A stretch of DNA of 64,000 nucleotides from Patescibacteria group bacterium. Its GTDB lineage: Bacteria; Patescibacteriota; Microgenomatia; UBA8517. Below are positions 23,136 through 60,195 of the stretch, piece by piece (position 1 is the stretch's first letter; each line of letters starts with the position of its first letter). Below the pieces are notes generated by a model. It was given only the letters and a program-made list of their open reading frames with translations. It had not been told where the DNA came from and made no database searches. A program made the translations under genes and the position numbers. The stretch is taken from contig DASVCV010000012.1 in the NCBI GenBank assembly GCA_036381415.1, positions 10,717 through 74,716 on the forward strand. Direction: 5' to 3'.

Positions 23136-24401
23136 TTAATTTATTAAAGAGTTAATTTTCTTTGTAAGATGTATAAGCTTTATAAATACAATAAGGTTAA
23201 TAATCGAAAGCGCTGTCTTTACACTATCTATCTTTAAAAGGCTCTCCAGGAAGGAAAAAGGAGGTGCCCAAAACAAATGATATAGATTTAAAAGACTTAA
23301 AATAGACAAAATAATATAAGAAATTAAAATTTCTGGGAAAAATCCAAGAGAAATAGTAGCCAGCGGAAAAAAGGGATAAAGATACCTCTCATGAATTCTT
23401 GTAAAAAACAAAAACGTAGCCAAAGCAGTCAAACTTAAAGCATAGAAAATATACTTTTCTTCAAATTTATGTTTCTTTAGCCATAATATTAGTGTAAGTA
23501 CTATCCCGATAACCAAAAGATACCCCCAAATATGTGCTGACAAGCCAAAATAAATGTAAGAATCAAGAACTTTTCCAGGATCAACTATCCACCAGAAATT
23601 AAAGGCATTGGCAGTTAAATACCCAATCTCCCCTGGAAATATTCTTTGATTATATAAATTAAATAGCCAAACAGGTAAATCAAAAGCTGGGTGGAACCAA
23701 ATTGATATTCCAACTACGCATATTGCACATGCTGCAAATGCCCTCACCCACTCCTTTACTTCATATTTCTGCCAAATCATTACCACAAAAAGAATTGGCA
23801 GAAAGATAGACAAAGACCCTTTAAACAGTAAGCTCAAAACTATAAATATCATGGATAAAACTAGTTTCCTCTTCATTAGAAAAAGAATACTCACTAGTCC
23901 TAATAAATTTACAATTGGATCTGTTTGCCCCCAAACAGCAGAGTTATATAAAATAACAGGATTAAATAGCCACAAAGCACTCAAAATAAACCCCCTTCTT
24001 TCCATCTTCTTTTCTTTAAAGTACTTATAAATAAGCCATCCAATCCCAAGATCAGCTAAAACTGACGGAAGCTTAACCAACAAGGTCATTCCTTGTCTTT
24101 CCCAATACCAAATAAACTTTGATGGAAAAAATGAAATGCGATTATTTAGGAACCAGGAACTATTATCAACAAAACTCCAAATATTATTAGTAAAAGCAAA
24201 TAGAAGTATAGTTAAAGGCGGCTGGTTTGGTGCTGAATTAGGCCAATCAGTCCCTTCATAAAAATTAGCTAGTCCTCTCTCACTAGCTAACTTTCCCCAA
24301 GAAATATTGTTATTTAAATCCCCGTGGAATGCAATTGGGATTAAAAGGAGTCTTAATATAAAAGCAGCTAGTATTAATATAATAAATTTTTTGCTCTTCA
24401 T
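23136..24401 (-). CDS. Polytopic membrane protein, putative GT-C mannosyltransferase-like (DUF2029/GT87-like)
   Basis: KLPSVLADLGIGWLIYK and NPVILYNSAVWGQTD motifs are shared with the C-terminal module of 46697-49711. Confidence 0.45.
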   Translation of the reverse strand: MKSKKFIILILAAFILRLLLIPIAFHGDLNNNISWGKLASERGLANFYEGTDWPNSAPNQPPLTILLFAFTNNIWSFVDNSSWFLNNRISFFPSKFIWYWERQGMTLLVKLPSVLADLGIGWLIYKYFKEKKMERRGFILSALWLFNPVILYNSAVWGQTDPIVNLLGLVSILFLMKRKLVLSMIFIVLSLLFKGSLSIFLPILFVVMIWQKYEVKEWVRAFAACAICVVGISIWFHPAFDLPVWLFNLYNQRIFPGEIGYLTANAFNFWWIVDPGKVLDSYIYFGLSAHIWGYLLVIGIVLTLILWLKKHKFEEKYIFYALSLTALATFLFFTRIHERYLYPFFPLATISLGFFPEILISYIILSILSLLNLYHLFWAPPFSFLESLLKIDSVKTALSIINLIVFIKLIHLTKKINSLIN

Positions 24402-45203: not shown

Positions 45204-46718
45204 TTAAAATACCTTTACTGTGAGCTCAAAAACATCTTTATTTTTATATGCAGCCATTGGCACTCCACCCAAATCTTCATAATAAACCATTATGTTTTTC
45301 CCCTTATATAATAGATTAATTGCATCTTGTCCATTAAGAATAAAAAATGCCTGTTTTGAACTACTTCCCCACTCACTAGAAATAAAAGGATAGTCAGGAT
45401 CATTCCTTAGATAAAGAATTGAACCATAGGGTAATTCTGGATACTTTGCTTGTATTTGACTGATAATCTGCTTTGCATAATCTCCCCTGGTCTTTGCCCA
45501 ATAAGTAGATTGTGCAAGTTGTGATGTAGATAGTGAAAGGCAGATAAGACCAGCAACGAACAGCATAACTAAAATCAATCCAATCTTTGTTTTTTTCTTT
45601 AGTAAATCATATGCACTAAATACAATATAAAAAACCACTCCCCAAAAGGCAGGAAGTGAAACTGCAAGGTAATAAGCAGATTTGTGAAGGGGAAGTAAGG
45701 CTAAAGGTAAAATACTTGCAGGAAACCAAATAAGAAGTAAAAGAAAGTTTCTATTAGATAATAATTTTATTTTCTTTACTACTATATAAAAAATAGAAGT
45801 AGCAATTACTATAACTGAATAAAAAAATGTAGGAAATATTACTCTGTAATAGTTGCTCCAATATTTTAAAAGATTTGGATTTAGTTTTAAGCCAGACCCA
45901 ACAAAATCAATTAAGCTTTCAGGAAGTCCAACTGCCCACACAATATACCAAGAAAATGTATTTGCAATTGTCTTCAAATTAAAAACAGGATGGTACTGTA
46001 CTTCTCCCTCTGAAAATCCAATTACTTTTACTTCTAAATAAAGATAGATTAAAGAAAAACCAAGTGGAATCAAATATCCTCTTACTGATTTTAATATATT
46101 GTTTATATTAATTTTATCCCAACTACTTACATCCAAAAATAGAATCACAGGAATAAGTGCAATTGAAGTCTCATGACTAGCAAGTGCCAAAAAGAAAGTT
46201 AGAAAAGAAATTAATTTCCATTTTAGTATTCTTTTTTCTAAATATTTTAAATACAAAAGTACTGTTAGAAGTACAAAAAAAGTAGCTCCCAGTGCTTGTA
46301 CTCCTCCTGCAAGATAATAAAGAATACTCACATTAGCTCCGCTTATTCCAACCATCAAAGAAACTAAATAAGACAACGATTTTCTTTTAAATAGTTTGTT
46401 CATTAAAAGATATGTAAGTGCTATGTTTGAAAAAAGAAGTACAAACTGCAAAATCCTAAAAGGAAGTGCGTTTAGTCCAAACAAATTGTAAAAGTTTAAA
46501 TAGAGAAGCTCTCTAAATATTGGTCTATAAAAAGCAATTCCACGCTCGCTAAAAGGATGAAATCCAAATAAATAAACAAGTCCTTTACTTCCAGCTTCCT
46601 GTGCAACTCTAAAATGGAAAAAATCATCCCCGCTAAAGTAAGTAGTAAGAACAGGCAGATAAAAAAGAAGAGTAACTAAAAATATGGGAAGTAGTATTAA
46701 GAAAGTCTTCTTGTACAT
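45204..46718 (-). CDS. Polytopic membrane protein, putative GT-C (unknown family)
   Basis: 504 aa; N-terminal loop FSGDDFFHFRVAQEAG has acidic residues after TM1; many TM helices. Confidence 0.4.
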   Translation of the reverse strand: MYKKTFLILLPIFLVTLLFYLPVLTTYFSGDDFFHFRVAQEAGSKGLVYLFGFHPFSERGIAFYRPIFRELLYLNFYNLFGLNALPFRILQFVLLFSNIALTYLLMNKLFKRKSLSYLVSLMVGISGANVSILYYLAGGVQALGATFFVLLTVLLYLKYLEKRILKWKLISFLTFFLALASHETSIALIPVILFLDVSSWDKININNILKSVRGYLIPLGFSLIYLYLEVKVIGFSEGEVQYHPVFNLKTIANTFSWYIVWAVGLPESLIDFVGSGLKLNPNLLKYWSNYYRVIFPTFFYSVIVIATSIFYIVVKKIKLLSNRNFLLLLIWFPASILPLALLPLHKSAYYLAVSLPAFWGVVFYIVFSAYDLLKKKTKIGLILVMLFVAGLICLSLSTSQLAQSTYWAKTRGDYAKQIISQIQAKYPELPYGSILYLRNDPDYPFISSEWGSSSKQAFFILNGQDAINLLYKGKNIMVYYEDLGGVPMAAYKNKDVFELTVKVF

Positions 46719-49711
46719 TTGATATAAGAAATAACATTAGCCAAAGACAAAATCTTAATAAGCAAAAACCCATTATCTGTAAATGGCCTTCCTATTTCAT
46801 CAGAACTCCTTCTATAGAAAGCCCAGATTAGATTTAAAAATAAAGTTATATTTATAAGTACCAAGTAAACAGCCAGCTTTGGTTTAGTAAAAATAAGTAT
46901 AACTAAAGGAGCAAATGCTGCAAAGAAGTATCTCTCAAGCATTCCAGTCATAAATAGAAAACTTCCTAATCCAATCGTAAATATTCCTACAACAACTGAC
47001 AAAAGATTGTTCTTTTGTTTTGAAATCCACTTAAATGTAAACACATTTATAACAAGATAGAATAATAAGCCCCACAAGTTGGCTGGAATTAAAAAGTATC
47101 TTGAAAAATCAAAATCACGGTCAATTTTTGCAAAAATAGTCCAGAAATTAAATGCTGAGTTGGAAATTTTTTGTATTCCTTTTGACCCGGGTAAAATATT
47201 ATTAAAAATATATTTAGTACTAAAACCAAATAAATCCCCATTCGCAAAAGGATTTGTGGTTATATAAAAAATAACAACAGATATGACAAGGCCAACCAAT
47301 ATTTGTTTCCTACTCACCTTAAATCTCCAAAGCAAAAACAAAAACAAAGGTCCAAAAACAATCCAGGTTGGCTTTATATAGATACTAATAAATAAAAGGG
47401 GGATTGCAAGCCATGCTTTTTTTGATGCCAATAACACAAATGATCCTAATCCAAAAATAGCAATTACACTCTCAGTTTGTCCCCAAACTCCAGCAAGAAA
47501 TATTGTTACAGGATTTAAAAGATAAAAAGATGCGGCTAAAGCTGCTTTTTTAGAATCTTTTGTTAAATCTTTAACTACTTTAAAAATAAGGGCACCTAAT
47601 CCAACATCAGCTAGTATTACAGGAAGTTTTAAAAGTAAATTGTATCCACTCGAGTAGAAATCAATTATAAAAGAAGACGGGGGAATCTTAATTTTATTGT
47701 GTAACTGAGAAAGCACATACTTTGAGTCAAACATTTTACCCAAATATCCATACATTAAAGAAGATAGAGGGGGATAGGTTGGTCTTGAAAACTCCCAACT
47801 AGTATCCGTATAGAAATTCTTTGTACCTATCTTTTCAAACTTTGCTCCCCACTCTCCAACTGCATTTAAATCACCATTAATATTAAAATCTCCATAGGGA
47901 AGTAGACTATACCTAATAATCACTCCCAAAACTACTGCTCCTGCAAAAACTAATCTAACTGAAAATTTTAAGCTTTTTTTTTTACTCTTATTCTTACCCT
48001 TAAGTTTATTTTCTCTGATATTTCTAACAATTAATATCGCAAGTATTACCCAAGTAACAAGTGAAATTATATTCCCTAAGGTTCTTGGCAATGTATCATA
48101 TAGTCTTACATACACTTGATGCACCCCTTTTGGAACATTTACATATATTCTTCCCCATTTCTCTTCCTTTGCAGTCTTAACTTGTGCTTCAGTTCCATCT
48201 ATAAATACTCTCCAATTTGGAAACTGAAATATATTAATTCTAACTAATCCGTAATCAGTTACTACATTTGCATTAAATGTAGCCCAATTAGTACTTTCCT
48301 TTGGACTTGTAATTTCGCCTTTGCCATCTATAAACTCAGCCAAAATCCTCTGTGGACTATTTGGCGCCATTTCAGCAGTAATTGGAAGGTAATCATAAAT
48401 GCCAGCTGTCTGCTGTAAATCCCATGCAAGACCGCTAAACTTTTCATGATCAGTTAGAGGTCCTAAATGTCCATGTTCTGGTAGGAAATAATTCCAGTTC
48501 CAAACAATAAGTCCAACTGCCAAAATACCTGCAATATATATTCCTATTTTTTTAGGCAAAAGTGTAGGAAGTATTCCTGCCAAAAAAGAGAAGCAAAAAA
48601 TAACAATTGTTAAAAATCTCCAAGGGAACTGGACATAGTTTAAAGTCTTAAACATCTGCCAGATAGGCGTTGATTTTGAGTGGATCATAAAAGCCGCAAA
48701 CCAACCTCCAACAAACAAAAGTAAAACCATAAGTGTCACATCATCTATTTTTCTTTTCTTAAGTGTTCTTAAACCAACAATGGCAAGCACTACTAAAGAA
48801 AGTATCCAGTGAAGCTGTCCAATCTGGAATGGCATTCCATCATTTGGCCCCCAAATAGAAGGACCATATCCCCAGAAGCGTGAAGTCAAAATCTGCCCCA
48901 CAGTTGCAAAATGAGCAGTGTACTCATAATAACCCTGAATAAGGCTGTTAGCATGTGTATATTTCTGCTCAACTACTACAGGAATTGTAAAAAATGCCAC
49001 CAAACCAAATGCCAAAATTCCGCTAACTATAAGAGGAAGTATTTTTCTCCAACCATTTCTTCTAACAACCCAAAGTAAACACCAGAGAGAAAACAAAGGT
49101 GCAAATATCATAGCCATTAAATTGTGCGACGTAAGAAGTCCTGCCCAAGCAAGACCAAGACCCACAATCCATCCAAACCTCTTACCCTTTGCAGTTATAA
49201 GTTTATATGAAGTCCAAAAAATTAATGGAAACCAAGTTAGTGCCCATGCTTCATTCATAGCTCCCCTTACATAGATATCAACTGAATGGTATGGAGCCCA
49301 AACATAAAAAATAGCTGCAATAATTCCGCCATATTTGCCAAAAAATTCTTTTCCCAAAAAGTACATTGTCACACTTGATGTGACAAAAGCTAAAATAAAC
49401 ACAAGCTTTATAGTATCTACAAAAGATACTCCAAATAGTCTAATCGCCTCCCCTATTAAATAGGGAAGGGGTGGGTAAAAATTAAATAAAGGAAAACCAA
49501 ATCCATATCCCATATCAGGAACCCATCTGCATGGAATCTGAAGAGACAAAAAGCACTTCTCCATTTCAAGTTGCCTCATCATCTGAAGATCATCATGCAT
49601 GTTGAAATATCCAGATCCAATAAGTCCTTTGCCAGCTAATATCCCCACAAAGATAACGATAAGAAGCGGTACAAAACCAGGATTAGAAATAATTTTTCGA
49701 ATAAACTTCAT
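46697..49711 (-). CDS. 1004-aa fusion of two GT-C-like membrane modules ('PTPS-related'-like N-terminal module plus DUF2029-like C-terminal module)
   Basis: N-terminus LQIPCRWVPDMGYGFGFPLFNFY matches 17173-18669; C-terminus KLPVILADVGLGALIFK..NPVTIFLAGVWGQTE matches 23136-24401; the two modules are joined by a Lys-rich linker. Confidence 0.6.
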   Translation of the reverse strand: MKFIRKIISNPGFVPLLIVIFVGILAGKGLIGSGYFNMHDDLQMMRQLEMEKCFLSLQIPCRWVPDMGYGFGFPLFNFYPPLPYLIGEAIRLFGVSFVDTIKLVFILAFVTSSVTMYFLGKEFFGKYGGIIAAIFYVWAPYHSVDIYVRGAMNEAWALTWFPLIFWTSYKLITAKGKRFGWIVGLGLAWAGLLTSHNLMAMIFAPLFSLWCLLWVVRRNGWRKILPLIVSGILAFGLVAFFTIPVVVEQKYTHANSLIQGYYEYTAHFATVGQILTSRFWGYGPSIWGPNDGMPFQIGQLHWILSLVVLAIVGLRTLKKRKIDDVTLMVLLLFVGGWFAAFMIHSKSTPIWQMFKTLNYVQFPWRFLTIVIFCFSFLAGILPTLLPKKIGIYIAGILAVGLIVWNWNYFLPEHGHLGPLTDHEKFSGLAWDLQQTAGIYDYLPITAEMAPNSPQRILAEFIDGKGEITSPKESTNWATFNANVVTDYGLVRINIFQFPNWRVFIDGTEAQVKTAKEEKWGRIYVNVPKGVHQVYVRLYDTLPRTLGNIISLVTWVILAILIVRNIRENKLKGKNKSKKKSLKFSVRLVFAGAVVLGVIIRYSLLPYGDFNINGDLNAVGEWGAKFEKIGTKNFYTDTSWEFSRPTYPPLSSLMYGYLGKMFDSKYVLSQLHNKIKIPPSSFIIDFYSSGYNLLLKLPVILADVGLGALIFKVVKDLTKDSKKAALAASFYLLNPVTIFLAGVWGQTESVIAIFGLGSFVLLASKKAWLAIPLLFISIYIKPTWIVFGPLFLFLLWRFKVSRKQILVGLVISVVIFYITTNPFANGDLFGFSTKYIFNNILPGSKGIQKISNSAFNFWTIFAKIDRDFDFSRYFLIPANLWGLLFYLVINVFTFKWISKQKNNLLSVVVGIFTIGLGSFLFMTGMLERYFFAAFAPLVILIFTKPKLAVYLVLINITLFLNLIWAFYRRSSDEIGRPFTDNGFLLIKILSLANVISYIKCTRRLS
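47974..47983. repeat. T10 homopolymer (A10 on the coding strand) inside 46697-49711, encoding KKK in the interdomain linker
   Basis: Read directly: agc followed by ten T then actc; it is the longest homopolymer I noticed in the window. Confidence 0.85.
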
Positions 49712-49738: not shown

Positions 49739-51316
49739 CTACTTCCCAGAGTCAACCAATTCAAATAAATAAAGTGTCTCTCTAGGCCCTAAGTTTTTAT
49801 ATTCCTTTGCATTTTTATCTAGTCTAAATGCTTTAGGATAAGCTGCTATTAACCTTAGTCCTTTTGACTCAGGATTTGTAAACTTCAATCTGTCATTATT
49901 AACAACCAAATAAGTAAAGTTTCCACTCCTTTTTGAATTAACTAAGTTTGAAGGAACTTTATCTAAATCAAGTCCCACTCCAACAACTGTAAGATTAGGA
50001 ATCTCATTTAAATAAATTTGAAGTCCATCAGGCAAAGTACCAAATAATCCTTCAGTCCCAACAACTATTCCTTTGCCAGGATTTTGAGAGTGAACTCCTT
50101 TTATATAATCACTCACCTCTTTAATCCCAGTCCCGCTTGTCCACTCTTCTAAATACCCACTTCTTTCACTAGAAGGAATTGGTGCTACCTCTATATTAGT
50201 TGCAAATAAGTAATCAATTCTTAATGAATTTATAACTAGGAATATAAAAACAATTGTAAGTATCTTTGTATAGATTTTGTTCCTTTCCAAAAAGGCACTA
50301 GCCAAAAGCATATAAAAAGGAGGAAGAGTATATAAAATATATCTAGCTGTAAAAACCTTTCCAAATTCGCTTGTTGCAAGAAGTGGAACTATAAACCAGG
50401 CAAAAATTAATACCACTTCCCATTTATGTTTCCTTACTGTTGTAAAAATTCCTGGAAAGAAAAAGAGTGTAAGAAGTCCTGGCCCCCAAGCCATAAACCA
50501 ATCAGTGAATACTTCTTTAAAGTGAAATGTAAATGGATCCCACCAGCCACTCCCAAACAAATGGCTTATTGGATAAACATAGTCCATATTCCTTATTGTT
50601 ATAAATTGAGAGTTAGGACCCAATCTTAAAATTCCATACATTCCATATCCAATAACATAGGTAACCAACAATAACCCAACTAAATGAAATACATGAGTTA
50701 GAACATCCATTCTCTTCTTTGGCCACTTTGAAACGACAAGCGTTAAAGGAAGCAGCACTGCAAAAAATAATGCTGGAGATTTAGTAAGAAGTGCTCCACC
50801 TAAACTAAACCCGGTTAGCATTGCCATATCCAATCTTTTTGTTTTGGCAGTAATAATTCCCAATAGTAGTGTCCACATACCAAACATAGTTAAAAGTGAA
50901 TCCACAAGTGCCATCCTGTCAAAAAAGAAAGAGAAAGGAACAATGGCTGTCATAAAAGAAGCTATTAAAGCCACCTTTTTTGATTTAAACAATGAATATG
51001 AAATTCCAAATGTTGCAGCAATTGTTCCAATTCCACTAAATACCGAAATAACTCTTCCCAAAAACAAAGGATCAAAACGTTTATTCATCAAAAACATAAG
51101 TATCCACATATAAAAGGGCTGTTTGCCGTCTGACAAAGGCAAAAACCTTAATGTATTATCAGCTGCCATTACTTGAGACCATCTTATGTAAATTGCTTCA
51201 TCTGCAAACACCGGCATGGAAGTTAAGTGGTATATCCTAATTAGAAATGCAAAAAGAAGTATTAAAAAAAGAATTATCCCTGTCTTTTTCCAATTAATCA
51301 AAAACTTTTTAACCAT
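49739..51316 (-). CDS. PMT_2/ArnT-like GT-C membrane glycosyltransferase
   Basis: First loop MPVFADEAIYIRWSQ (DE motif); 12 or more TM helices. Two ATG starts are possible (51346 MHLAG.. or 51316 MVKKFL..). Confidence 0.6.
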   Translation of the reverse strand: MVKKFLINWKKTGIILFLILLFAFLIRIYHLTSMPVFADEAIYIRWSQVMAADNTLRFLPLSDGKQPFYMWILMFLMNKRFDPLFLGRVISVFSGIGTIAATFGISYSLFKSKKVALIASFMTAIVPFSFFFDRMALVDSLLTMFGMWTLLLGIITAKTKRLDMAMLTGFSLGGALLTKSPALFFAVLLPLTLVVSKWPKKRMDVLTHVFHLVGLLLVTYVIGYGMYGILRLGPNSQFITIRNMDYVYPISHLFGSGWWDPFTFHFKEVFTDWFMAWGPGLLTLFFFPGIFTTVRKHKWEVVLIFAWFIVPLLATSEFGKVFTARYILYTLPPFYMLLASAFLERNKIYTKILTIVFIFLVINSLRIDYLFATNIEVAPIPSSERSGYLEEWTSGTGIKEVSDYIKGVHSQNPGKGIVVGTEGLFGTLPDGLQIYLNEIPNLTVVGVGLDLDKVPSNLVNSKRSGNFTYLVVNNDRLKFTNPESKGLRLIAAYPKAFRLDKNAKEYKNLGPRETLYLFELVDSGK

Positions 51317-51317
51317 A

Positions 51318-52067
51318 TTAAACTTGATATTTCCCGCTAAGTGCATTTATTCTTACCTTTATTAATCCCTTAAACCCATCCCAGGAGTCTTTAATTGGAC
51401 TCACTTCTTTTCTTAATCCCTTTTCATGCCAATCAACTGGCACTTCAGCAACTTTTAATCCTAGCTTTCTTGCAATATATAAAATCTCAAGATCAAAACC
51501 AGCATTCACTGCCGCCCCTTTAATGCGTGCCGTATCATTAAAAACTTTCATTCTCTTAAATATTTCATGAGCTTTTTCCTTCTTAAAAGCTTTAAATCCA
51601 CACTGAGTATCTTTATATGGAAGATTAAGAATTAATTTTCTTAAAATCATAAATCCGTAAGCCATTAACTTTCTTACCATTGGATAACCTTCTCTTCCAT
51701 GCCTTGATCCAATTACTCCATCATATCCACTCTCAAATTTAGGAAAGAACTTCTCAATTTCTCTCAAAGGTGTTGCCTGGTCCATATCAGAAAATAAAAT
51801 TATTTCTCCTTCTGCTTTTAACATCCCGGCAATTACAGTTCCTGCTTTTCCTCTGTGTGGTTCTTCATAGAAAGTAAAATTTTTGTGGCTTTTGGCATAG
51901 CTGGAAAGAAGAGTTGGTGTTTCATCAGTTGATCCATCATCAACCAAAAGTACATTCCAAATATATTTTTGCTTCTTTAAATACTCATTAACCTCATCCA
52001 AAACTCCATTCTGGATATTTTTAACTTCATTGTATGCTGGAATTACTACTGATAATTTGTACTTCAT
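51318..52067 (-). CDS. GT2 polyprenol-phosphate sugar synthase (Dpm1/GtrB-like)
   Basis: LSVVIPAYNEVKNI..LVDDGSTDET..FSDMDQ..DTQCGFKAFKKE, typical of dolichyl/undecaprenyl-phosphate hexosyltransferases. Confidence 0.75.
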   Translation of the reverse strand: MKYKLSVVIPAYNEVKNIQNGVLDEVNEYLKKQKYIWNVLLVDDGSTDETPTLLSSYAKSHKNFTFYEEPHRGKAGTVIAGMLKAEGEIILFSDMDQATPLREIEKFFPKFESGYDGVIGSRHGREGYPMVRKLMAYGFMILRKLILNLPYKDTQCGFKAFKKEKAHEIFKRMKVFNDTARIKGAAVNAGFDLEILYIARKLGLKVAEVPVDWHEKGLRKEVSPIKDSWDGFKGLIKVRINALSGKYQV

Positions 52068-52072
52068 ATATC

Positions 52073-53623
52073 TTATTTGTCTATATTAAATCTAACCCTT
52101 CTTTGCACACTCACCCCTCCAAATTTTACCTCTTCTTGAATACTTCCGATACCAGCTTGTCTAACCATCCAAGATTGAAGCCTTTCGGGATGGGGTGGAT
52201 CAGTCTCAAATACTGTATAAAGTAAACTAACGTGTTTATCTAGCTTCATGTTGCATAAATCCACTCCACACCTTTTAGTTGCCTGCCAAACAAATAAGTA
52301 GTTATAAGAATAAGGAATAACTGGCGGAACATAGCTATCAAAATTAAACTCCCTTCCTCCAGCATCTTTAAAAGCCCAATCAACTGCTTGAAGTTCATTA
52401 CCCATTGCAACAGTAGTAGGACCATCAACACCAGAAACTACATAATTTCTATCTAGGAGTAAATTCTGCTGGAAAAAGACAATCAAAAATAATGCTGGGA
52501 TTACAAATCTTGCCCTGCCTTGCACAAAATTCACAACCAATATTGAGAATACTAAAACAAATATAAAGTAATACCCTGTAAAGTAGTAATCATAGACATT
52601 CCCAAAATTTCCCTGGAAGAAAAACATACCAATTAAAGGAGAAACAAGTAAAAGTAAAATCACTTTAAAATATTTGTTAGCCCAAAGACTTCTCCAGTTA
52701 ATTAGAAGTGATGCAAACATAAAAGCAGTTGCAACCAATTTTCCTTTTTCACCACTTGGATTAATTTTAGACATAAATACATCCTGATAAAAAGGAACTC
52801 TAATCTTTACCATTTCCCAGAAAGAAACCTTAAAAGATTTGTCTGTAAATAAAAACTTGGCAATTGCAGTTCTTAAAATACCCTGATGAATAAGATCAAA
52901 AATAATTTGTGGGACAAATGCAAAAAAAATTAGAAAAATGCTTGCAATCATTATTTTCTTACTACCAAGATTGCGTCTTTGCCAGATTGCAAAAATAACT
53001 ACAGCAGGAAAGTAAAAAACTTCAGCTGCACTTCCAAACTGCATTGCCATACCAATTAAAAACCCAATAGCAAGCCAAGCCCACTTTTTTCCTTCCATCG
53101 CCAAAAACATACTAAAAATAAGTAACATGCTAATTAAAAGCATTGGAGTGGGATTTGATAGCCAACGGGAGGCCAAAAGTAAATAATATGATAATCCTGC
53201 AATTGCTGCAGCAAATACACCAGTTGACCTATCTGCCACTTTAGAAGCAATAATGTAAACAAATACAACAGCTACAAGTGTTGTTAACGAAAGAAAAACC
53301 GCTGGAAATCCAGGATCTCCACCACCAATTAAATAAAAAGGGGCAATTAGCCAGTAATACCAAGGTCCACGAAATATTCCAGCTATCCCAGTAGTAGGTC
53401 CAATTAAAAACATTTTTCCCTTGTGCCAGAAATCCCAAATTACCTGCGCATCTCTTCCTTGGTCATAATAGAACCCTAGAAGCTGGTCTACTCTATAAAC
53501 CCTAAAAAATAAGGCAGCAATTAAAACTATAAAAAGTAAAATATAGATAACATGATGATCTTTTACTTCTCTTTTAAATCTTCCCATCCACTCTTTTATG
53601 TTCCCTTTTATTTTCTTAATCAT
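52073..53623 (-). CDS. PMT-like GT-C membrane glycosyltransferase, subfamily B (B2)
   Basis: YDQGRDAQVIWDFWHKGKMFLIGPTTGIAGIFRGPWYYW parallels B1 and B3. Confidence 0.6.
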   Translation of the reverse strand: MIKKIKGNIKEWMGRFKREVKDHHVIYILLFIVLIAALFFRVYRVDQLLGFYYDQGRDAQVIWDFWHKGKMFLIGPTTGIAGIFRGPWYYWLIAPFYLIGGGDPGFPAVFLSLTTLVAVVFVYIIASKVADRSTGVFAAAIAGLSYYLLLASRWLSNPTPMLLISMLLIFSMFLAMEGKKWAWLAIGFLIGMAMQFGSAAEVFYFPAVVIFAIWQRRNLGSKKIMIASIFLIFFAFVPQIIFDLIHQGILRTAIAKFLFTDKSFKVSFWEMVKIRVPFYQDVFMSKINPSGEKGKLVATAFMFASLLINWRSLWANKYFKVILLLLVSPLIGMFFFQGNFGNVYDYYFTGYYFIFVLVFSILVVNFVQGRARFVIPALFLIVFFQQNLLLDRNYVVSGVDGPTTVAMGNELQAVDWAFKDAGGREFNFDSYVPPVIPYSYNYLFVWQATKRCGVDLCNMKLDKHVSLLYTVFETDPPHPERLQSWMVRQAGIGSIQEEVKFGGVSVQRRVRFNIDK

Positions 53624-54618
53624 ATTTTTCCTTCTTTCTCCTTCATAAGCTCTTTTGCAGTATCTAACACTTTCTCTACAGCTTTTTCAAATGGCAAATC
53701 TAAAATCTTTGCAGCAGCTGCCCACCTGTGTCCACCTCCACCAAGCTTTGCTGCAATTTTAGACACATCCACTCCGGTCCTAGATCTAAAACTTACATCC
53801 AATCTTTTATCTTCTCCAATCATCACAATTCCAATCTTGCTTCCAGACACACTTTGAAATATTAAATCTGCAATTTCACTTTTAGCTCCAACTGGTCTTT
53901 CATATTTTTTGTATATCTCAAACTTCGTAGCCGACCAAGCAATTCCACTCTCCTCATCTATTTTCAAATTATTTAGAACCTCAACCCAAAACTTAATTGT
54001 TAATAATTCATAACTTTGAAACAGATTTAAAATTATTGTTTCTCTATCAGCTCTTTTTGTCATTAAATCAGCAACCACTACAAAAGTACTCTCCTTAGTT
54101 TCTCTAAACCTTAACCCTCCTGTATCTCCCATCACACCTGTTAATAGTGAAGTAGAAAGATTCGCATCCATGTTTATTCCCCAACCTCTAAAAAGCCAAA
54201 ATAAAATCTCGCAGTTTGATGGAGAACTCTCATCAACCATATTAATTTTCCCAAATTTTTCATTTGTTTCATGGTGATCAATCACAATAATAGGAATTGA
54301 AGGGATGCTGACTTTTTTATTTCCAGTAACTCTTTCCCAGCTTGCAGAATCTAAAACTACAAAAAGATCCCAAGCAGTAAAATCAAACTTTTCATAGTCT
54401 ACTATCTCTATATCTTTCGTTTCTTTTAAAAAAGAAAGATTTTTAGGAATTGGACTTGGGCTTACTATTTTTGCTTCCTTTCCTAACCCCTTCACAAAAT
54501 GCAAAAACGAAACTGCACTTCCAACACTGTCTGCATCACAATTAGCATGACAATTAATAAGAACTTTTTCTGATTTTTTTACTTCATCCAAAATTTCCTG
54601 TGAGTGAGGATAATTCAT
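53620..54618 (-). CDS. nrnA: DHH-family phosphoesterase (NrnA-like nanoRNase/pAp phosphatase)
   Basis: DHH motif VIDHHETN and DHHA1 GGGGHRWAAAAK; ATGA overlap on the upstream side and an adjacent stop/start on the downstream side. Confidence 0.7.
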   Translation of the reverse strand: MNYPHSQEILDEVKKSEKVLINCHANCDADSVGSAVSFLHFVKGLGKEAKIVSPSPIPKNLSFLKETKDIEIVDYEKFDFTAWDLFVVLDSASWERVTGNKKVSIPSIPIIVIDHHETNEKFGKINMVDESSPSNCEILFWLFRGWGINMDANLSTSLLTGVMGDTGGLRFRETKESTFVVVADLMTKRADRETIILNLFQSYELLTIKFWVEVLNNLKIDEESGIAWSATKFEIYKKYERPVGAKSEIADLIFQSVSGSKIGIVMIGEDKRLDVSFRSRTGVDVSKIAAKLGGGGHRWAAAAKILDLPFEKAVEKVLDTAKELMKEKEGKI

Positions 54619-54619
54619 T

Positions 54620-56173
54620 TCACTTATTGTGGCCTAACTTATAAACAATAACTCCTGATACTTCCCATTGGTCAAGTATTTTGCTCCAGCCAAAGTTGGC
54701 AATCCATGCAGAAGGATCATGGGTTGGGTCACACTTTTCCTTAGGTTTCTCACAAACCACAAATAACTGATCAGTAACTGTGTAGGCCACTGCATTTGGG
54801 TCAGTATCTACTACCTTTGCTCCCCATACCTGGAAAAAGTACTGATACACATCTCTATTATTTCTTTCAGAAATAGTTGCAATATTAAACCTTTGTCCAT
54901 TTGCCCTATCCCTTATAAAAGCTGCAATATCTTGTGATCTTTTAAGCTGATTGTTTGGTCCAACATTCAAAGCACTATTTGAAAAATTAGCATAAGCTAA
55001 AATCAAAAACCCAATTACAAGTAATATTTTTACAATATTATTTTTATATAGCTTCTGATAAATAGCTCCAGTAAGAATAAATGGAACAGCAAAAACAAAT
55101 CCGTAATAGTGATCAAAAATATTTTGTTTATACAATCCAAATCCAAGTAGTGCAAATCCCATCCACACAATAAGAAGATAAAATGCACTCCCCAATTTTT
55201 TTCTTTTTGTAAGAACAAGAAAAGCGCAAATTCCTGTTACAATAATTGTCGTCCACTTCCCAACCTCAACATCCCTCCCTGCTATTAGTCTTGCATTTAT
55301 ATCTTCAAATCTTGGATACATCTTTGGAATTGCATTCCAGGGTTTAATTGAAACTGTATCTTGTCTTACAGTAAAGAACTGCTTTATTGCATTAAAGTTT
55401 TGCCAATTATGTCTAATATCAAAGATAAGAAGGGGAGACATCAAAATTGCAAAAGCAGCTACCCCCCAAATAGTATTCATAATTAATTTTCTTTTCTCTT
55501 TTTTATCCTTCTTGGCCTGCCAAAAAGTAAGAAGCCACAAAATTCCCATTACAGGAATAAGCGCCAGTCCTAAGTAGTGTGACTGCACAACAAATGCAAA
55601 AGAAATCCCAGCTAGAATTAAAAGTCTTAATTCTTTCTTACTCCACACTCTCCACATTAAATAAATTGAAGCCAATGCAAAAAAAGGCATGATGTTGGGG
55701 TTCCAAGAAGATCTTGAATAAATTACAACTGTAGGACTGATAGCATAAAAAAATGCTGCAAAAAAAGCTGCAATGCCTCCAAACCACTCTCTTGCTACCC
55801 ACCAAACCAAAAATATAGTTAAAACTCCAAGCAAAGCAACCATTACAGCTGGCCCAACAGGCGAGTAGTTGGCAATTAAAAGTGGAATTGCCATCATGTA
55901 GTAGTAAAGAGGACCTAAATACATATTTCCAATTGAAGTTCCAGGTCCAATTAATGGAGGATGCGCCTCTACCCAAAGACGCCTTACTATAATCACATCT
56001 CTTCCTTCATCTCCCAAAAAAGTCATGTATTGATCAATTTTGTAAAGTCTTAGAAATGCACCAACCAAAATAATTAAAACTAATAAAACTGTTTCCTTTG
56101 GGTGATCTTTAACCCATCCCTTAGTTTTTTTAAATATCTGATTTATCCTTTTACCTAATTCAATTTTTGCCAT
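54620..56173 (-). CDS. PMT-like GT-C membrane glycosyltransferase, subfamily B (B3)
   Basis: GDEGRDVIIVRRLWVEAHPPLIGPGTSIGNMYLGPLYYY; HPPL as in eukaryotic PMT loop 1. Confidence 0.6.
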   Translation of the reverse strand: MAKIELGKRINQIFKKTKGWVKDHPKETVLLVLIILVGAFLRLYKIDQYMTFLGDEGRDVIIVRRLWVEAHPPLIGPGTSIGNMYLGPLYYYMMAIPLLIANYSPVGPAVMVALLGVLTIFLVWWVAREWFGGIAAFFAAFFYAISPTVVIYSRSSWNPNIMPFFALASIYLMWRVWSKKELRLLILAGISFAFVVQSHYLGLALIPVMGILWLLTFWQAKKDKKEKRKLIMNTIWGVAAFAILMSPLLIFDIRHNWQNFNAIKQFFTVRQDTVSIKPWNAIPKMYPRFEDINARLIAGRDVEVGKWTTIIVTGICAFLVLTKRKKLGSAFYLLIVWMGFALLGFGLYKQNIFDHYYGFVFAVPFILTGAIYQKLYKNNIVKILLVIGFLILAYANFSNSALNVGPNNQLKRSQDIAAFIRDRANGQRFNIATISERNNRDVYQYFFQVWGAKVVDTDPNAVAYTVTDQLFVVCEKPKEKCDPTHDPSAWIANFGWSKILDQWEVSGVIVYKLGHNK

Positions 56174-56850
56174 AATTTGATTAAATCAGTAATACTTTTG
56201 AGAACTACTTTCATATCTGCTCCTGTCTGCTTCCCAAACTTTCTTGGATAATGATGTACTCCAACCTCAGCAAATCTGTACCCTTTTCTTTTTGCTTTAG
56301 TTAGCATCTCAATTTTAGTTACCTTTTCTTCTCCCACTAAAGGTTGAATAGAATCAAACACTTCTTTCTTTATTACCCAAAACCCACATGAATAATCTTT
56401 TATGGTAAGTCCAAAAATAACTCTTGGGAAAATTCTCCATCCCCATGTAAAAACCTTTCTCATAAATGGATCTGCTCTATGAAGTCTGTAGCCCAAAATT
56501 AAATCCGCTTTGTCTGTATACTCTAAAAACTTTGTAATTTCTCCAAAATCAAACTGTCCATCACTGTCTGCAAAAGCAACCCAGGGATATTTTGCATTTC
56601 TGTATCCTGTCTTCAATGCTCCTCCATATCCAGCATTAGCTTGGTTTACAACCTTAATTCTCTTGTCCTTTTTAGCTAAGGCTTCTGCTATTTCCCTTGT
56701 TCTATCTTTAGATCCATCATTAACAACAATAATTTCCCACTTATTTGCAACCTTCTCTAAAACCTCTTTAGCAGATGTAACTGTAGTTTTTATATTTCCC
56801 TCCTCATTGTAGGCTGGAAAAAATACTGAAAGTGAATCTATTTTTGCCAT
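56155..56850 (-). CDS. GT2 polyprenol-phosphate sugar synthase (Dpm1/GtrB-like)
   Basis: LSVFFPAYNEEGNI..VVNDGSKDRT..FADSDGQ..DYSCGFWVIKKE. Confidence 0.75.
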   Translation of the reverse strand: MAKIDSLSVFFPAYNEEGNIKTTVTSAKEVLEKVANKWEIIVVNDGSKDRTREIAEALAKKDKRIKVVNQANAGYGGALKTGYRNAKYPWVAFADSDGQFDFGEITKFLEYTDKADLILGYRLHRADPFMRKVFTWGWRIFPRVIFGLTIKDYSCGFWVIKKEVFDSIQPLVGEEKVTKIEMLTKAKRKGYRFAEVGVHHYPRKFGKQTGADMKVVLKSITDLIKLWQKLN

Positions 56851-56905
56851 TTGTCATCAAAGTCTAGCATAAAATAAGCCTAGCGTGCTAATATTTGATA
56901 GTTCC

Positions 56906-58054
56906 ATGAAAAAATTAACAAATATTGTCCCCATCCTCTTTTTAGCCATAATTCCAACTCTTTTAATCTGGCTCCCTTTCTTTTTGAGGCTAGATAATAT
57001 TGCAAATGTACCTTTAGCTAAAAATGGAATGGCTACAATTGTTGCAAACTATGATGGCCCTCTTTATTTAATTGTTGCTAAAACTCTCTATAATCTTCCT
57101 CAAATTGCTCAAAATTATCAGTTTCCACTTCCGCTTGAGTATTACGCAGCCCACTTTCCACTCTTTCCTCTTCTTATTAGGCTATTTTCTCCTGTCTTTG
57201 GATATCCCTACTCAATGCTGTTTCTTACAGTTGCCTCATCCTTCCTTGCCCTCTTCTTCTTCCACAAACTAATTTTAAAATATGTTAAACCCCATGATGC
57301 TCTTTGGATTACCCTTGTCTTTGCCCTCTTTCCAGGCAGATGGCTGGTGGTTAGATCAGTTGGCTCTCCAGAGCCCCTTTTTGTAGCTGCAATTATTGCA
57401 TCTCTTTACTACTTTACCGAAAAAAAGTATCTGTATGCAGCTTTCTGGGGAGTAGTAGCACAATTAACAAAATCCCCAGCTATTCTGTTGTTTATTGCAT
57501 ACTTAGGATCAATTGCAGCTCCCCAACTAAACAATATTATTACTGGCAAATTCAAAAAGATTAATTTAAAACCTCTTGCTATAGTTGCCATCCCCCTTTC
57601 CCTTCTTGCCGTCTTTTACTTTTTTGGTTTAAAAACAACCTTTAATGATTTTCTTGCCTACTTCCACTCAGGTGACAATATTCATCTTCTTTTTCCACCT
57701 TTCCAGATCTTTAACTATTCTGCACCTTGGGTAGGAACATTTTGGCTAGAAGAAGTACTATTTATATACCTATTTGGAGCAGCAACAGTAGCAACATTCA
57801 TTAAAAGAAAAGAATACACACTTGCATGGTTTACTGGAATATTTTTCACCTCTCTTCTTTTTGTATCGCACCGAGACTTACTAAGATATGCTCTTCCTTT
57901 AGTACCTTTTACTTTCGTAGCATTTCATAAATACTTAACTATGAAGGAATTTAAATACATTTTTGCCCTTCTTATCATCCCCACCTATTTATTTGCTCTT
58001 GCCTTCATTTCCCAAAATGTAATGCCAATTGCAAACTGGGGACCATTCCTATAA
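56906..58054 (+). CDS. Polytopic membrane protein, possible GT-C (DUF2029-like)
   Basis: About 11 TM helices; loose pattern match to 23136-24401 (LFPGRWLVVRSVGSPEPLFVAAIIAS vs LFNPVILYNSAVWGQTDPIVNLLGLVS). The track start at 56885 is GTG; the ATG is at 56906. Confidence 0.35.
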   Translation: MKKLTNIVPILFLAIIPTLLIWLPFFLRLDNIANVPLAKNGMATIVANYDGPLYLIVAKTLYNLPQIAQNYQFPLPLEYYAAHFPLFPLLIRLFSPVFGYPYSMLFLTVASSFLALFFFHKLILKYVKPHDALWITLVFALFPGRWLVVRSVGSPEPLFVAAIIASLYYFTEKKYLYAAFWGVVAQLTKSPAILLFIAYLGSIAAPQLNNIITGKFKKINLKPLAIVAIPLSLLAVFYFFGLKTTFNDFLAYFHSGDNIHLLFPPFQIFNYSAPWVGTFWLEEVLFIYLFGAATVATFIKRKEYTLAWFTGIFFTSLLFVSHRDLLRYALPLVPFTFVAFHKYLTMKEFKYIFALLIIPTYLFALAFISQNVMPIANWGPFL

Positions 58055-58093
58055 ATCTTCTAGGCTTGCAACCTCTGCTATAATTATATCTAC

Positions 58094-58522
58094 ATGAGTC
58101 CTGACAGGGGATTTTTCCATATAGCTCAAAACTGGAGAGTAAGAAACGAAAGGCTAACACTAACTGGCAAAGAATGTTCGCATTGCGGCTCTAAGATATT
58201 TCCTCCTAGGCCGATTTGTCCTACTTGTGATTATGAAGTAGAGGGAGAATTCCTTGGAATGGGAACTTTAAAAGTAGCACTTTCCCACATTAAATCTTCT
58301 AAAAGACAAATTGAATTTTGCATTTCTATTGTTAAGGATAATGTAGAAATGACTATTAATTTAAATGGTAAGTCACACACTCTTGGACTAAAAGCTGGAA
58401 TGCAGATTCCTGTCTTTGTAAGAAAATCAAGAAACGGAGGAGATCCTTATTATAGTTTTGATCTTAACCAACCAGCTTCTGAAGCCAACCAAGACCTGGG
58501 ATCTTCCAAGTCTTCCAAATAA
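58094..58522 (+). CDS. Zn-ribbon/OB-fold protein (DUF35/COG1545-like)
   Basis: CSHCGSKIFPPRPICPTCDY matches the C-x2-C..PPR..CP-x-C rubredoxin-like ribbon of DUF35; the 3' end overlaps a convergent gene by 59 nt. Confidence 0.5.
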   Translation: MSPDRGFFHIAQNWRVRNERLTLTGKECSHCGSKIFPPRPICPTCDYEVEGEFLGMGTLKVALSHIKSSKRQIEFCISIVKDNVEMTINLNGKSHTLGLKAGMQIPVFVRKSRNGGDPYYSFDLNQPASEANQDLGSSKSSK

Positions 58523-59633
58523 GAATATTGTAGGCTGCATAGTTATATGGAAGTACAAAAAATCCAACAGCAATTATAAGCATAATCTGCCTATACTGAT
58601 TCCCAAATAATTTGGTTCCTACTCCAACTACCACTGCCTGAATTAAAATTGCCCCCAATGATGTAAAGTTAAATTGCAAAAACTTGACTATTAACTTGCC
58701 AACAGAAGTAATCTTTCTTTCTGAAAATGTCCAAAAATTATTTAACGTAAAGTTTGAAATAATAGCAAGCTCAGCTCCAAGTGCTGCTGCAATTGCAGTT
58801 GCAAGTCCCAATCTATAAAAAACTTCTAAACCGCCTGCATTAATTAAATATCCAATAAAACCTACTGTTGCAAACTTGAAAAATCTAAGTATTTTTGGAT
58901 TATGTATTTGGAAAAGAAAAATGACTTTAAGGCTTTCAATCATTTCATTTTTAATAATCTTAGATTCCCCAGCTGTCCTTGCCATAAAAGTAATTGGAAC
59001 CTCAGCTACCTTAGCACCATTATTAAGGCATGCTGCCAAAATATGTAGTTTATATGCAAAACTGTTTGAGTAAAGGTGATCCAAATCAACTTTATCTAAA
59101 ACTCCCTTTACCTTAGTTAATTTAAAACCAGTTGTAAGATCATGAACACCAAATCTTAAAAGTCCTACTCTTGCAATTAAATTTCCCACAACACTTAAAA
59201 ACTTTCTGTTAAATCCCCACTCCTTTGGAATTGACCCGCCTGGTATGTATCTTGATCCAATAATATATTCATAACCTTCGTCAATTTTCTCAACTAGTCT
59301 GTGCATCTCATCAGGCCTGTGTTGAAAATCTCCATCAAATTCCATCACATAGTCAGCATTCATTTCTTTCATGGCATATTTAAATCCTTTAGCATATGCC
59401 TTCCCTAATCCTTCTTTTTTAGGATTTAGAAGAAGATGCACCCATTTATATTTCTTTGCATAGTCTCTTACTACCTCATATGTTTTATCAGGTGAAGTAT
59501 CATCAACTACCAACAATTCCATTTTATGAGACAAAGACTTTTCTATCTTTGGAAACTCATCAGCCAAAGCTTCAATCATTTTGGAGATATTATCCCTCTC
59601 ATTATAAGTAGGGATTACAACGACAACTTTCAT
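58464..59633 (-). CDS. GT2 polyprenol-phosphate sugar synthase fused to a C-terminal GtrA-like 4-TM domain
   Basis: VVVIPTYNERDNI..VVDDTSPDKT..EFDGDFQ..TTGFKLTK, then FFKFATVGFIGYLINAGGLEVF (GtrA-like). The track start at 59654 is GTG; the ATG is at 59633. Confidence 0.75.
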   Translation of the reverse strand: MKVVVVIPTYNERDNISKMIEALADEFPKIEKSLSHKMELLVVDDTSPDKTYEVVRDYAKKYKWVHLLLNPKKEGLGKAYAKGFKYAMKEMNADYVMEFDGDFQHRPDEMHRLVEKIDEGYEYIIGSRYIPGGSIPKEWGFNRKFLSVVGNLIARVGLLRFGVHDLTTGFKLTKVKGVLDKVDLDHLYSNSFAYKLHILAACLNNGAKVAEVPITFMARTAGESKIIKNEMIESLKVIFLFQIHNPKILRFFKFATVGFIGYLINAGGLEVFYRLGLATAIAAALGAELAIISNFTLNNFWTFSERKITSVGKLIVKFLQFNFTSLGAILIQAVVVGVGTKLFGNQYRQIMLIIAVGFFVLPYNYAAYNILIWKTWKIPGLGWLQKLVG

Positions 59634-59634
59634 T

Positions 59635-60195
59635 TTATTGTTGATTAGCAGCACTCATTAAGAAGGTGGGCAATAAAGCTACAAATGCAAATGCAAGGAT
59701 AATAGACAAAAGAGTAATTATCACTGCAGGAACTGCAAAAACAAGAATTGATTTCTTCATACTAAATTTATGCATCACAGTTCCCCCGATTACAAAAATA
59801 ACTAACGCATAAATAGATCCAGCAAGAGGACCTATGATTGGAATAAAATTAAGTAATGGCTTAGGAGTATTTGAATACACATATAACTGATATGTGTTCA
59901 CAAAGGTTCCTGTACCTCCAAAGATCTTTGCCCAAACATGAATAATTGCAATTACTATAAAAATAAGTAGAAGTGTAAGTATATAAACTACAACTAAGGC
60001 AGGAATATTTAAACCCTTGCCTCCCTGAAGAACAACTGCTGCCAAAGTTTGCAATATTGTGCCAACCAAAGATAAAACTGCATAATAGATAAATGCATCC
60101 TTAATACCGTCTTCCTTCTTTGCTCCCTCAAAAAATATCTTTGGCTTTGTAAGAACCAATTTTGCTTTTTTTACAATTTCTTTCACAAATTCCAT
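59635..60195 (-). CDS. Small polytopic membrane protein (Yip1-domain-like)
   Basis: 186 aa; a cytosolic N-terminus followed by about 5 TM helices. Confidence 0.4.
   Translation of the reverse strand: MEFVKEIVKKAKLVLTKPKIFFEGAKKEDGIKDAFIYYAVLSLVGTILQTLAAVVLQGGKGLNIPALVVVYILTLLLIFIVIAIIHVWAKIFGGTGTFVNTYQLYVYSNTPKPLLNFIPIIGPLAGSIYALVIFVIGGTVMHKFSMKKSILVFAVPAVIITLLSIILAFAFVALLPTFLMSAANQQ

Follow-up and report, generated by a model that had tools for sequence, protein, structure and literature searches.

Closest described systems and the block at 49739-60195

Type-III dolichyl-phosphate mannose synthases (DPMS), represented by the Pyrococcus furiosus enzyme (PfDPMS, PDB 5MLZ), carry a GT2 catalytic domain, interface helices and a GtrA-like four-helix transmembrane (TM) domain on a single polypeptide (PMC5526996, PMC12992685). 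In the GtrA-GtrB-Gtr(type) and other three-component systems, a GT2 lipid-phosphate synthase works with a GT-C transferase encoded in the same gene cluster (PMC11127046). The actinobacterial Ppm1-Pmt pathway and polyprenyl-phosphate-mannose (PPM)-dependent lipomannan assembly rely on a polyprenyl-phosphate mannose synthase that feeds PMT-family and other GT-Cs (PMC5882110). The ArnC-ArnT pair is a further point of comparison. Here we examined a gene block at positions 49739-60195 of a single 64,000-nt stretch of DNA (the window), in which three GT2-family enzymes lie among GT-C-type transferases. The GT2s are named DPMS-389 (58464-59633), GT2-231 (56155-56850) and GT2-249 (51318-52067), and three of the GT-Cs are named GT-C-517 (54620-56173), GT-C-516 (52073-53623) and GT-C-535 (49739-51346); all six are encoded on the minus strand. 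These open reading frames (ORFs) had been picked out as GT2 and PMT-like GT-C genes from the letters alone (the sequence-only reading), and Pfam matches to Glycos_transf_2 and PMT_2 confirmed them at the same positions.

Along their whole length, all three block GT2s resembled polyprenyl-phosphate monosaccharide synthases (DPMS, ArnC, GtrB), and not processive synthases. One-to-one pairing with a GT-C was found just for GT2-231/GT-C-517, GT2-249/GT-C-535 and DPMS-389 with a Gpi18-like GT-C encoded on the plus strand at 56906-58054. Lipid-linked monosaccharide synthases feeding GT-C transferases is the best-supported mechanism for these genes, and we consider it probable. This logic had been put forward in the sequence-only reading and was supported by the whole-length matches of the GT2s to DPMS, ArnC and GtrB; it is known logic and not new. 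The best explanation taken as a whole, which we hold to be likely, is that a large island for glycosylation of the cell surface, of Microgenomates type, has the block as its conserved core, with Ca. Woesebacteria as the nearest named relatives.

Each described system matches the block in part. DPMS-389 shares with type-III DPMS the single-polypeptide layout, all metal, donor, mannose and phosphate contacts, and the polar-pocket Asn residues. It differs in coming from a bacterium of the candidate phyla radiation (CPR), whereas PfDPMS is from a hyperthermophilic archaeon, and its lipid acceptor would presumably be bacterial polyprenyl phosphate and not dolichyl phosphate. With the Gtr systems the block has in common a GT2 lipid-phosphate synthase plus GT-Cs, the clustering of the genes, and a GtrA-family TM module in one synthase. 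However, no separate small flippase gene (GtrA, SMR or MATE) lies beside synthase and GT-C in the block, the block is not prophage-borne, there are many GT-Cs and not one, and the short GT2s are without the two C-terminal TM helices of GtrB. Escherichia coli GtrB (YfdH) was also a weaker match than ArnC or PfDPMS for all three GT2s and aligned with DPMS-389 over just 128 residues (39 bits).

The actinobacterial systems resemble the block in that a polyprenyl-phosphate mannose synthase feeds PMT-family and other GT-Cs in cells with no outer membrane. The catalytic domain of Ppm1 is soluble, and actinobacteria use multiple GT-Cs (PimE, MptA, MptB and the Emb/Aft enzymes). The block differs in having no Lnt-like Ppm2/D1 partner, and the window GT-Cs reach PMT at the Pfam or profile level only. 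ArnC was the best sequence and structural match of GT2-231, and ArnT was among the GT-C profile and fold matches. Against the likeness to ArnC-ArnT, the NCBIfam ArnC score was 68 bits vs. a cutoff of 529 bits, GT2-231 is without the TM helices of ArnC, the locus has no ArnA/B/D context, and the cell is a monoderm CPR bacterium without lipid A.

DPMS-389 and its GtrA/DPMS-type membrane domain

The GT2-GtrA gene was listed as an ORF at 58464-59654 (minus strand), starting from GTG 59654 and giving 396 aa. An exact-sequence look-up of this 396-aa form found no record, whereas the exact 389-aa product starting from ATG 59633 is already on record; the start is therefore most likely ATG 59633. The ORF matched Glycos_transf_2 at 98.5 bits. 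GtrA_DPMS_TM (PF04138) matched residues 260-380 of the 396-aa form at 53.8 bits (cutoff 26.1), covering profile positions 1-117 of 117, so the C-terminal GtrA match on which the sequence-only reading depended was recovered. PDB 5MLZ matched DPMS-389 over residues 6-345 (E=1e-48), a span that takes in the catalytic domain, the interface helices and TM helices 1-3, with 34% identity across 337 aa. When the TM domain alone was searched against the PDB, its sole match was the DPMS TM domain (E=3e-9). BLASTP of the same domain with E. coli GtrA/YfdG gave no alignment.

The donor, metal, mannose and phosphate contacts of PfDPMS have been assigned, with D39 as the guanine contact (PMC5526996). From that residue set, E12, D39, D89, D91, Q93, H94, R117, R131, S135, K178, R202 and K208 are kept in DPMS-389, and all but D39 are invariant when it is aligned with six CPR homologues. 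Because the mannose and guanine contacts are all kept, the predicted product of DPMS-389 is most likely polyprenyl-phosphate mannose.

A 2026 study describes type-III DPMS as a catalytic domain on a GtrA-like TM domain, supplies a formal motif definition, proposes the TM pocket as a possible flipping route for dolichyl-phosphate mannose, and confines the type, as there defined, to (hyperthermophilic) archaea (PMC12992685). DPMS-389 departs from this definition in the first motif, reading DGDFQHRP in place of 89-DADxQHPP-96 (x = L, F or Y): D89, D91, Q93, H94 and P96 are kept, A90 is replaced by G and P95 by R. The remaining motif residues SRY116-118, R131, S135 and K178 are present in DPMS-389 and invariant in the CPR homologues, and KIL reads KLH. 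In the TM polar pocket, N248 and N277 are invariant in the DPMS-389 alignment and N341 has an equivalent (YNY). The proposed gate residue F338 does not align: its column holds V in DPMS-389, following a one-residue insertion in TM helix 4, the reference for this column being archaeal sequences of type-III order and not TM helix 4 of PfDPMS.

A word-index search with DPMS-389 returned 6,925 matches at E<=1e-10. PF04138 was present in all 120 of the matches listed, and PF00535 in 119 of them as well (the exception is a 238-aa fragment). In a scan of GTDB species genomes, the matches listed included more than 20 bacterial loci in which the match ran through the TM domain. Loci with this architecture came, among the matches listed, from Acidobacteriota, Paenibacillus, Actinomycetota, Caulobacteraceae, Spirochaetales and several CPR groups. 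Proteins of the DPMS-389 type carry the JGI label "dolichol-phosphate mannosyltransferase". The GT2-GtrA fusion is thus genuine, yet its architecture is widespread and had been established and annotated before (type-III DPMS; Pfam GtrA_DPMS_TM). What had been singled out as a noteworthy fusion of GtrB and GtrA turned out to be a full-length homologue of the described type-III enzyme (5MLZ, PMC12992685), present in many bacterial phyla.

Homologues from Acidobacteriota and Paenibacillus foliorum (loci L009 and L018 among them) match the DADLQHPP motif exactly and also have R117, R131, S135, K178, N248, N277 and the GtrA-like TM domain. At residues 116-118 the same proteins read SRH and SRF, not SRY. 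Judged from their sequences, these exact-motif bacterial homologues appear to be at odds with the claim that type-III DPMS is found in archaea only (PMC12992685), and qualify it.

Short GT2s, GT-C partners and conserved gene order

GT2-231 (231 aa, Glycos_transf_2 112 bits) and GT2-249 (249 aa, 91 bits) both look like polyprenyl-phosphate sugar synthases. The best solved relative of GT2-231 was ArnC (E=7e-15, residues 2-216), and the best PDB matches of GT2-249 were DPMS (6e-13), GtrB and ArnC; alignments of the short GT2s to DPMS or ArnC spanned 165-216 residues. A Foldseek search with the AF2 model of GT2-231 (pLDDT 88.8) returned ArnC, DPMS and GtrB exclusively in the top 25 matches, at TMq 0.64-0.83 (0.76-0.83 to ArnC and DPMS structures, 0.64-0.80 to GtrB structures). 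Among the NCBIfam models, the halobacterial dolichyl-phosphate hexose transferase and AglJ matched the whole domain of both short GT2s, and the ArnC and PpgS models also covered the whole domain of GT2-231. All NCBIfam scores of the GT2s were far below the equivalog cutoffs. The exact 231-aa product is on record in NCBI (100% identity), and an exact-sequence look-up of the 249-aa product found no record.

Had the GT2s clustered with processive polysaccharide synthases, the proposed supply of lipid-linked sugars would have been called into question, and this was not so. We rejected the short GT2s as processive synthases: the matches to PgaC, chondroitin synthase and TuaG were limited to the N-terminal ~100 residues, and the NCBIfam models of PgaC, TuaG, CelA and similar enzymes likewise covered just this part.

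The three GT2s are only 26-31% identical to one another. Their DxD motifs are DGD in DPMS-389, DSD in GT2-231 and DMD in GT2-249; DxDxQ is kept in GT2-231, and DMDQ stands in its place in GT2-249. Both Arg residues of the lipid-phosphate site (R117 and R131 in PfDPMS) are found in all three. The third residue of this site, S135, is S in DPMS-389, T in GT2-231 and A in GT2-249, the Ser thus being absent from GT2-249. The equivalent of H94 is H in DPMS-389, F in GT2-231 and T in GT2-249; K178 is kept in DPMS-389 and GT2-231 and is D in GT2-249; R202 is kept in GT2-231 and is K in GT2-249. A lipid phosphate is the putative acceptor of the short GT2s. Since the sugar-contact residues differ among the three enzymes, it is plausible that they use different sugars.

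The three listed GT-Cs of the block passed the PMT_2 gathering score (cutoff 26.1) at 38-56 bits: GT-C-517 (517 aa) at 45.9, GT-C-516 (516 aa) at 55.6 and GT-C-535 (535 aa) at 38.2 bits. GT-C-517 and GT-C-535 also passed the PMT (PF02366) cutoff, at 35.6 and 27.8 bits, respectively. A crude hydropathy scan gave 7-8 hydrophobic segments per protein. The Asp of the DE motif (D55), in the first extracytoplasmic loop, was invariant across 13 GT-C paralogues of the window that are 15-23% identical to the first member, and a profile of these 13 paralogues reached yeast PMT1 6P25 (5.5e-6), STT3 (4e-4) and ArnT (6e-4). PMT_4TMC (PF16192) had no Pfam match in any of the three, which are therefore best described as PMT/ArnT-like proteins lacking demonstrable orthology to Pmt (GT39).

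The sequence-only reading had each GT2 directly beside a GT-C, often with overlapping stops and starts. This held for two pairs. The GT2-231 stop and the GT-C-517 start overlap by 19 nt (56155-56173), and GT-C-535, when read from its first ATG (51346), shares 29 nt with GT2-249; an alternative start of GT-C-535 lies in TAA-T-ATG, with the ATG at 51316, 1 nt past the GT2-249 stop. DPMS-389, in contrast, is beside none of the three listed GT-Cs. GT-C-516 does not adjoin a GT2 either, and instead follows a DHH/DHHA1 phosphoesterase gene (53620-54618, minus strand; Pfam DHH and DHHA1, with an NrnA-like NCBIfam score of 87 bits, below cutoff). The DHH gene overlaps GT-C-516 by 4 nt, its other junction, with the second flanking GT-C gene, is 1 nt, and it probably has no part in the glycosylation chemistry.

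We compared the block with four related Microgenomates-type contigs, in which the orthologues of the block genes are 37-94% identical to the window proteins (DPMS 52-94%, Gpi18-like protein 39-90%, GT2-231 51-90%). All four keep the order DPMS, Gpi18-like GT-C (opposite strand) and GT2-231, followed directly by the GT-C-517 orthologue (45-67% identity), and the overlap of the last two genes is 19, 25, 4 and 19 nt in the four relatives. The next gene varies: it is DHH in L005 and L091, a different 179-aa gene in L002, and none in L092. A GT-C-516 orthologue (37-49% identity) stands at the matching position in each relative and is followed by one further GT-C. The GT2-249 orthologue lies further downstream in the relatives, and in L002 is directly followed by the GT-C-535 orthologue (60% identity). 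Best-hit analysis showed that the conserved partners of the GT2s are orthologous GT-Cs and not arbitrary ones. The return of these orthologous pairs, in unchanged order, in the relatives points to more than chance adjacency.

Natural fusions were found among the homologues of GT2-249. The representatives of its related clusters are mostly stand-alone proteins of ~250 aa. In P0383 (821 aa, 45% identity to GT2-249), however, the GT2 is fused to a PMT_2/PTPS_related GT-C, and in P0450 it is fused to GtrA_DPMS_TM. As read from their sequences, these fusions would support a functional link between synthase and GT-C. A Halobacteriales archaeon metagenome-assembled genome encodes (L015:9992-13312) a 1106-aa protein with GT2, GtrA_DPMS_TM, PMT and PMT_4TMC on one polypeptide, a DPMS joined to a GT-C that resembles protein O-mannosyltransferases.

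The immediate neighbour of DPMS-389 is the Gpi18-like gene (56906-58054, plus strand; 382 aa from M8), which is convergent with DPMS-389, divergent from GT2-231 and kept beside DPMS in the relatives. The protein had no Pfam match. Its homologues are named "Gpi18-like mannosyltransferase" by JGI, and a few of them match PMT_2. Sequence profiles left its class borderline: hhalign against the window GT-C profile gave E=1.7e-4 at a probability of 50%, and a profile of the 389-aa membrane protein of this gene found no match in the PDB. The assignment was settled by an AF2 model (pLDDT 82.9, pTM 0.87) and Foldseek, whose top 41 PDB matches were all GT-C-fold proteins (ALG9, ALG6, STT3/PglB, GPI-MT-I, PIG-U, ALG12, ArnT, DPY19, PMT, AftA, EmbA and PimE) at TMq ~0.35-0.53. 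Foldseek probabilities were 0.6-1.0 (>=0.87 in all but one) and the E-values modest (>=5e-3). On this model, 56906-58054 is a GT-C-fold protein, and the three GT-Cs of the sequence-only reading, which had not listed this gene, are not the full set.

Proposed mechanism and alternative explanations

In the proposed mechanism, the three GT2s would each load polyprenyl phosphate with one sugar, taken from a nucleotide sugar, on the cytoplasmic face. DPMS-389 would be anchored by its own GtrA/DPMS-type four-helix domain and may flip its own product through it, with the Gpi18-like GT-C as the probable consumer. GT2-231 and GT2-249 each appear to be translationally coupled to their own PMT_2-type GT-C (517 and 535 aa, respectively). 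Amphipathic interface helices probably hold these short GT2s at the membrane surface, where they may dock on the GT-C partner, as the P0383 fusion suggests. Translocation could be carried out by the DPMS TM domain, by the Wzx-like MOP protein in the operon or by some other flippase. Outside the cytoplasm, the GT-Cs would then attach the sugar to Ser/Thr of proteins or to a glycan of the wall or on a lipid. Domain content, fold, the kept catalytic and phosphate-binding residues, the pairing of orthologues and the natural fusions were observed here; we infer the lipid acceptor of the short GT2s, the identities of the sugars, the flipping route and the final acceptors.

Several observations weigh against this supply of GT-Cs by dedicated synthases. 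The high GT-C density of the window makes adjacency alone weak evidence. A crude hydropathy scan found zero TM segments in GT2-231 and GT2-249, and GT2-249 is without the canonical DxDxQ spacing and without S135 and K178 equivalents. On the GT-C side, phmmer found no direct PDB match for any of the three listed GT-Cs, and the missing PMT_4TMC match belongs here as well. The window holds no stand-alone GtrA-like ORF and no small DPM3-like or GacJ-like partner ORF; the separate GtrA of the three-component GtrA-GtrB-Gtr system invoked by the sequence-only reading is thus absent.

The same lack of a TM helix and the departure of GT2-249 from the DxDxQ, S135 and K178 pattern would fit short GT2s that are ordinary cytoplasmic enzymes, extending a polyprenyl-diphosphate oligosaccharide or another acceptor, with the donors of the GT-Cs made elsewhere, for example only by DPMS-389. 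Every NCBIfam equivalog score lies far under its cutoff, and the island is rich in conventional GT2s, GT4s and Wzx flippases, which also suits this explanation. We nevertheless consider it very unlikely, given that the short GT2s are alike over their full length to DPMS, ArnC, GtrB, PpgS and the halobacterial dolichyl-phosphate hexose transferase, while other GT2s match in the N-terminal part only, and that all 25 top Foldseek matches of the GT2-231 model are polyprenyl-phosphate glycosyltransferases. The equivalents of the phosphate-binding R117 and R131 are retained, coupling to a specific GT-C is conserved, and GT2-GT-C and GT2-GtrA fusions occur among the homologues. Synthases of this class without TM helices exist, namely human DPM1, the actinobacterial Ppm1 catalytic domain and PpgS. 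If the GT2s are indeed synthases feeding GT-Cs, all three might still make the same lipid-linked sugar (e.g., polyprenyl-phosphate mannose or glucose) and be paralogues, each dedicated to another GT-C partner or set of conditions. The three have in common D39, the leading Asp of DxD and the two Arg residues that bind phosphate, specificity is not readable from sequence, and one-to-one translational coupling suggests private supply lines and not chemical diversity. A single shared sugar seems unlikely to us: the identity among the three is just 26-31%, the sugar-contact positions of PfDPMS differ (H94 = H/F/T, K178 = K/K/D), each orthologue group is kept separately across the relatives, and sugar-modifying enzymes are plentiful in the island.

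How the sugars cross the membrane leaves room for two further explanations. The GtrA-like TM domain of DPMS-389 may be a membrane anchor only, with flipping done by the Wzx-like MOP flippases or other scramblases, and we hold this to be quite possible. The proposed gate F338 is not aligned in DPMS-389, the domain has no pairwise similarity to E. coli GtrA, the island encodes two MOP-family proteins, and MOP/MATE flippases are known to serve a three-component system (PMC11127046). On the other side, the polar-pocket N248, N277 and N341 equivalents are kept, thousands of homologues have preserved the TM domain, and GtrA_DPMS_TM is also fused to a GT2-249 homologue. A bolder arrangement would have each TM-less GT2 dock on its coupled GT-C as a self-contained unit that makes, translocates and consumes the lipid-linked sugar with no dedicated flippase, and DPMS-389 flip its own product through the GtrA-like pocket. 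It is prompted by the conserved stop/start overlap, the orthologue-specific pairing, the GT2-GT-C and DPMS-PMT fusions, and the lack of a partner gene of GtrA, DPM3 or GacJ type; we think it improbable.

The surrounding glycosylation island and its meaning

At least 18 genes of the window as a whole are GT-C-like, among them 14 of PMT_2 type, three of YfhO/PTPS type and the Gpi18-like gene, and there are two further partial matches. A GT-C-dense stretch runs from 12146 to 49711, in which most paralogues are 15-23% identical. One of the PMT_2-type GT-Cs (24398-26134) was unseen by Pfam and was recovered by hhalign against the paralogue profile (E=8e-49). The next gene downstream in the block operon (46697-49711, minus strand) encodes a 1004-aa protein with two polytopic halves and ~17 hydrophobic segments, a GT-C of YfhO/PTPS_related type (PTPS_related 31.9 bits, YfhO weak); a YfhO/PTPS_related gene occupies the same place in L002 and L003. 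At 43698-45188 (minus strand) lies a Wzx-like MOP-family flippase gene (Polysacc_synt_3 180 bits, ~13 hydrophobic segments), whose product is a candidate translocase for lipid-linked sugars or oligosaccharides. The flippase candidates in the window are the fused TM domain of DPMS-389 and the Wzx-like MOP genes, which are at least 5 kb away. Besides its two Wzx-like MOP flippases, the island holds GT4 enzymes, conventional GT2s, methyltransferases and sugar-nucleotide epimerases/dehydratases.

All-against-all BLAST of the window GT2s placed GT2-231, GT2-249, DPMS-389, the product of 8117-8950 and the C-terminal domain of the 2400-4886 protein in one group, joined by alignments of ~130-240 residues with each other and with PfDPMS or ArnC. 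The window thus has five DPMS/ArnC-like domains and not the three counted at first. The seven remaining GT2s gave weak, partial matches to this group in the N-terminal half only. The gene at 8117-8950 (minus strand), just downstream of a Wzx-like flippase gene (8916-10169), encodes a 277-aa GT2 with 35% identity to GT2-231 and a whole-domain PpgS-like match. DxD is replaced by DAG in this protein and R117 by K, and by its sequence it may be catalytically atypical. The 828-aa protein of 2400-4886 (minus strand) consists of an NAD-dependent epimerase/dehydratase (1-342), a SAM methyltransferase (~382-525) and a DPMS/ArnC-like GT2 (from ~579), and may make a modified sugar and load it onto the lipid carrier within one polypeptide.

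At the other end of the block, a 186-aa polytopic membrane protein with a Yip1 domain (59635-60195, minus strand; Pfam Yip1 62.3 bits, ~4 hydrophobic segments) is encoded directly upstream of DPMS-389 in the same direction, its gene ending 1 nt before the DPMS start or overlapping it. The Yip1 gene precedes the DPMS orthologue in L001-L005 and not in L091 or L092. A 142-aa ORF on the plus strand (58094-58522) has a rubredoxin-like zf-ChsH2 zinc ribbon (27.4 bits) and runs antisense over the last 59 nt of the DPMS gene. Gene calls include it in L001, an identical contig, and not in L002, a relative with 94% identity that has a gap of just 170 nt at this place; the ORF may be lineage-specific or spurious. 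A promoter/terminator scan gave fewer matches than in shuffled sequence and carried no information on operon signals.

The window has a G+C content of ~34% and nearly every gene lies on the minus strand. GC skew was negative in each 2-kb segment from 1 to 64000, ranging from -0.08 to -0.375. The skew and the one-strand gene bias fit the strand compositional disparity known in some Microgenomates genomes (PMC7143001). The named homologues of the three block proteins that were searched came from Ca. Woesebacteria, the Microgenomates group or Patescibacteria. A literature search, limited in reach, turned up no report of DPMS or of an expansion of GT-Cs in CPR bacteria.

These results leave the known logic of such glycosylation systems unchanged and give probable functions to a gene block that is conserved in CPR bacteria of Microgenomates type, whose cell surface is, to our knowledge, essentially unstudied. 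These bacteria appear to depend on contact with a host. The exceptional GT-C density is notable given the small genomes of CPR bacteria generally. The near-complete set of type-III DPMS residues in bacteria qualifies the 2026 archaea-only statement (PMC12992685). That TM-less synthases stay coupled to particular GT-Cs across relatives, and that natural fusions occur, is mildly interesting, and the coupled pairs and fusions are tractable candidates for studying the hand-over of lipid-linked sugars from synthase to transferase. If the short GT2s and their GT-Cs did form docked, self-contained units, this would explain how reduced genomes run at least 18 GT-C enzymes, and would touch on a long-standing problem, the passage of polyprenyl-phosphate sugars across membranes.

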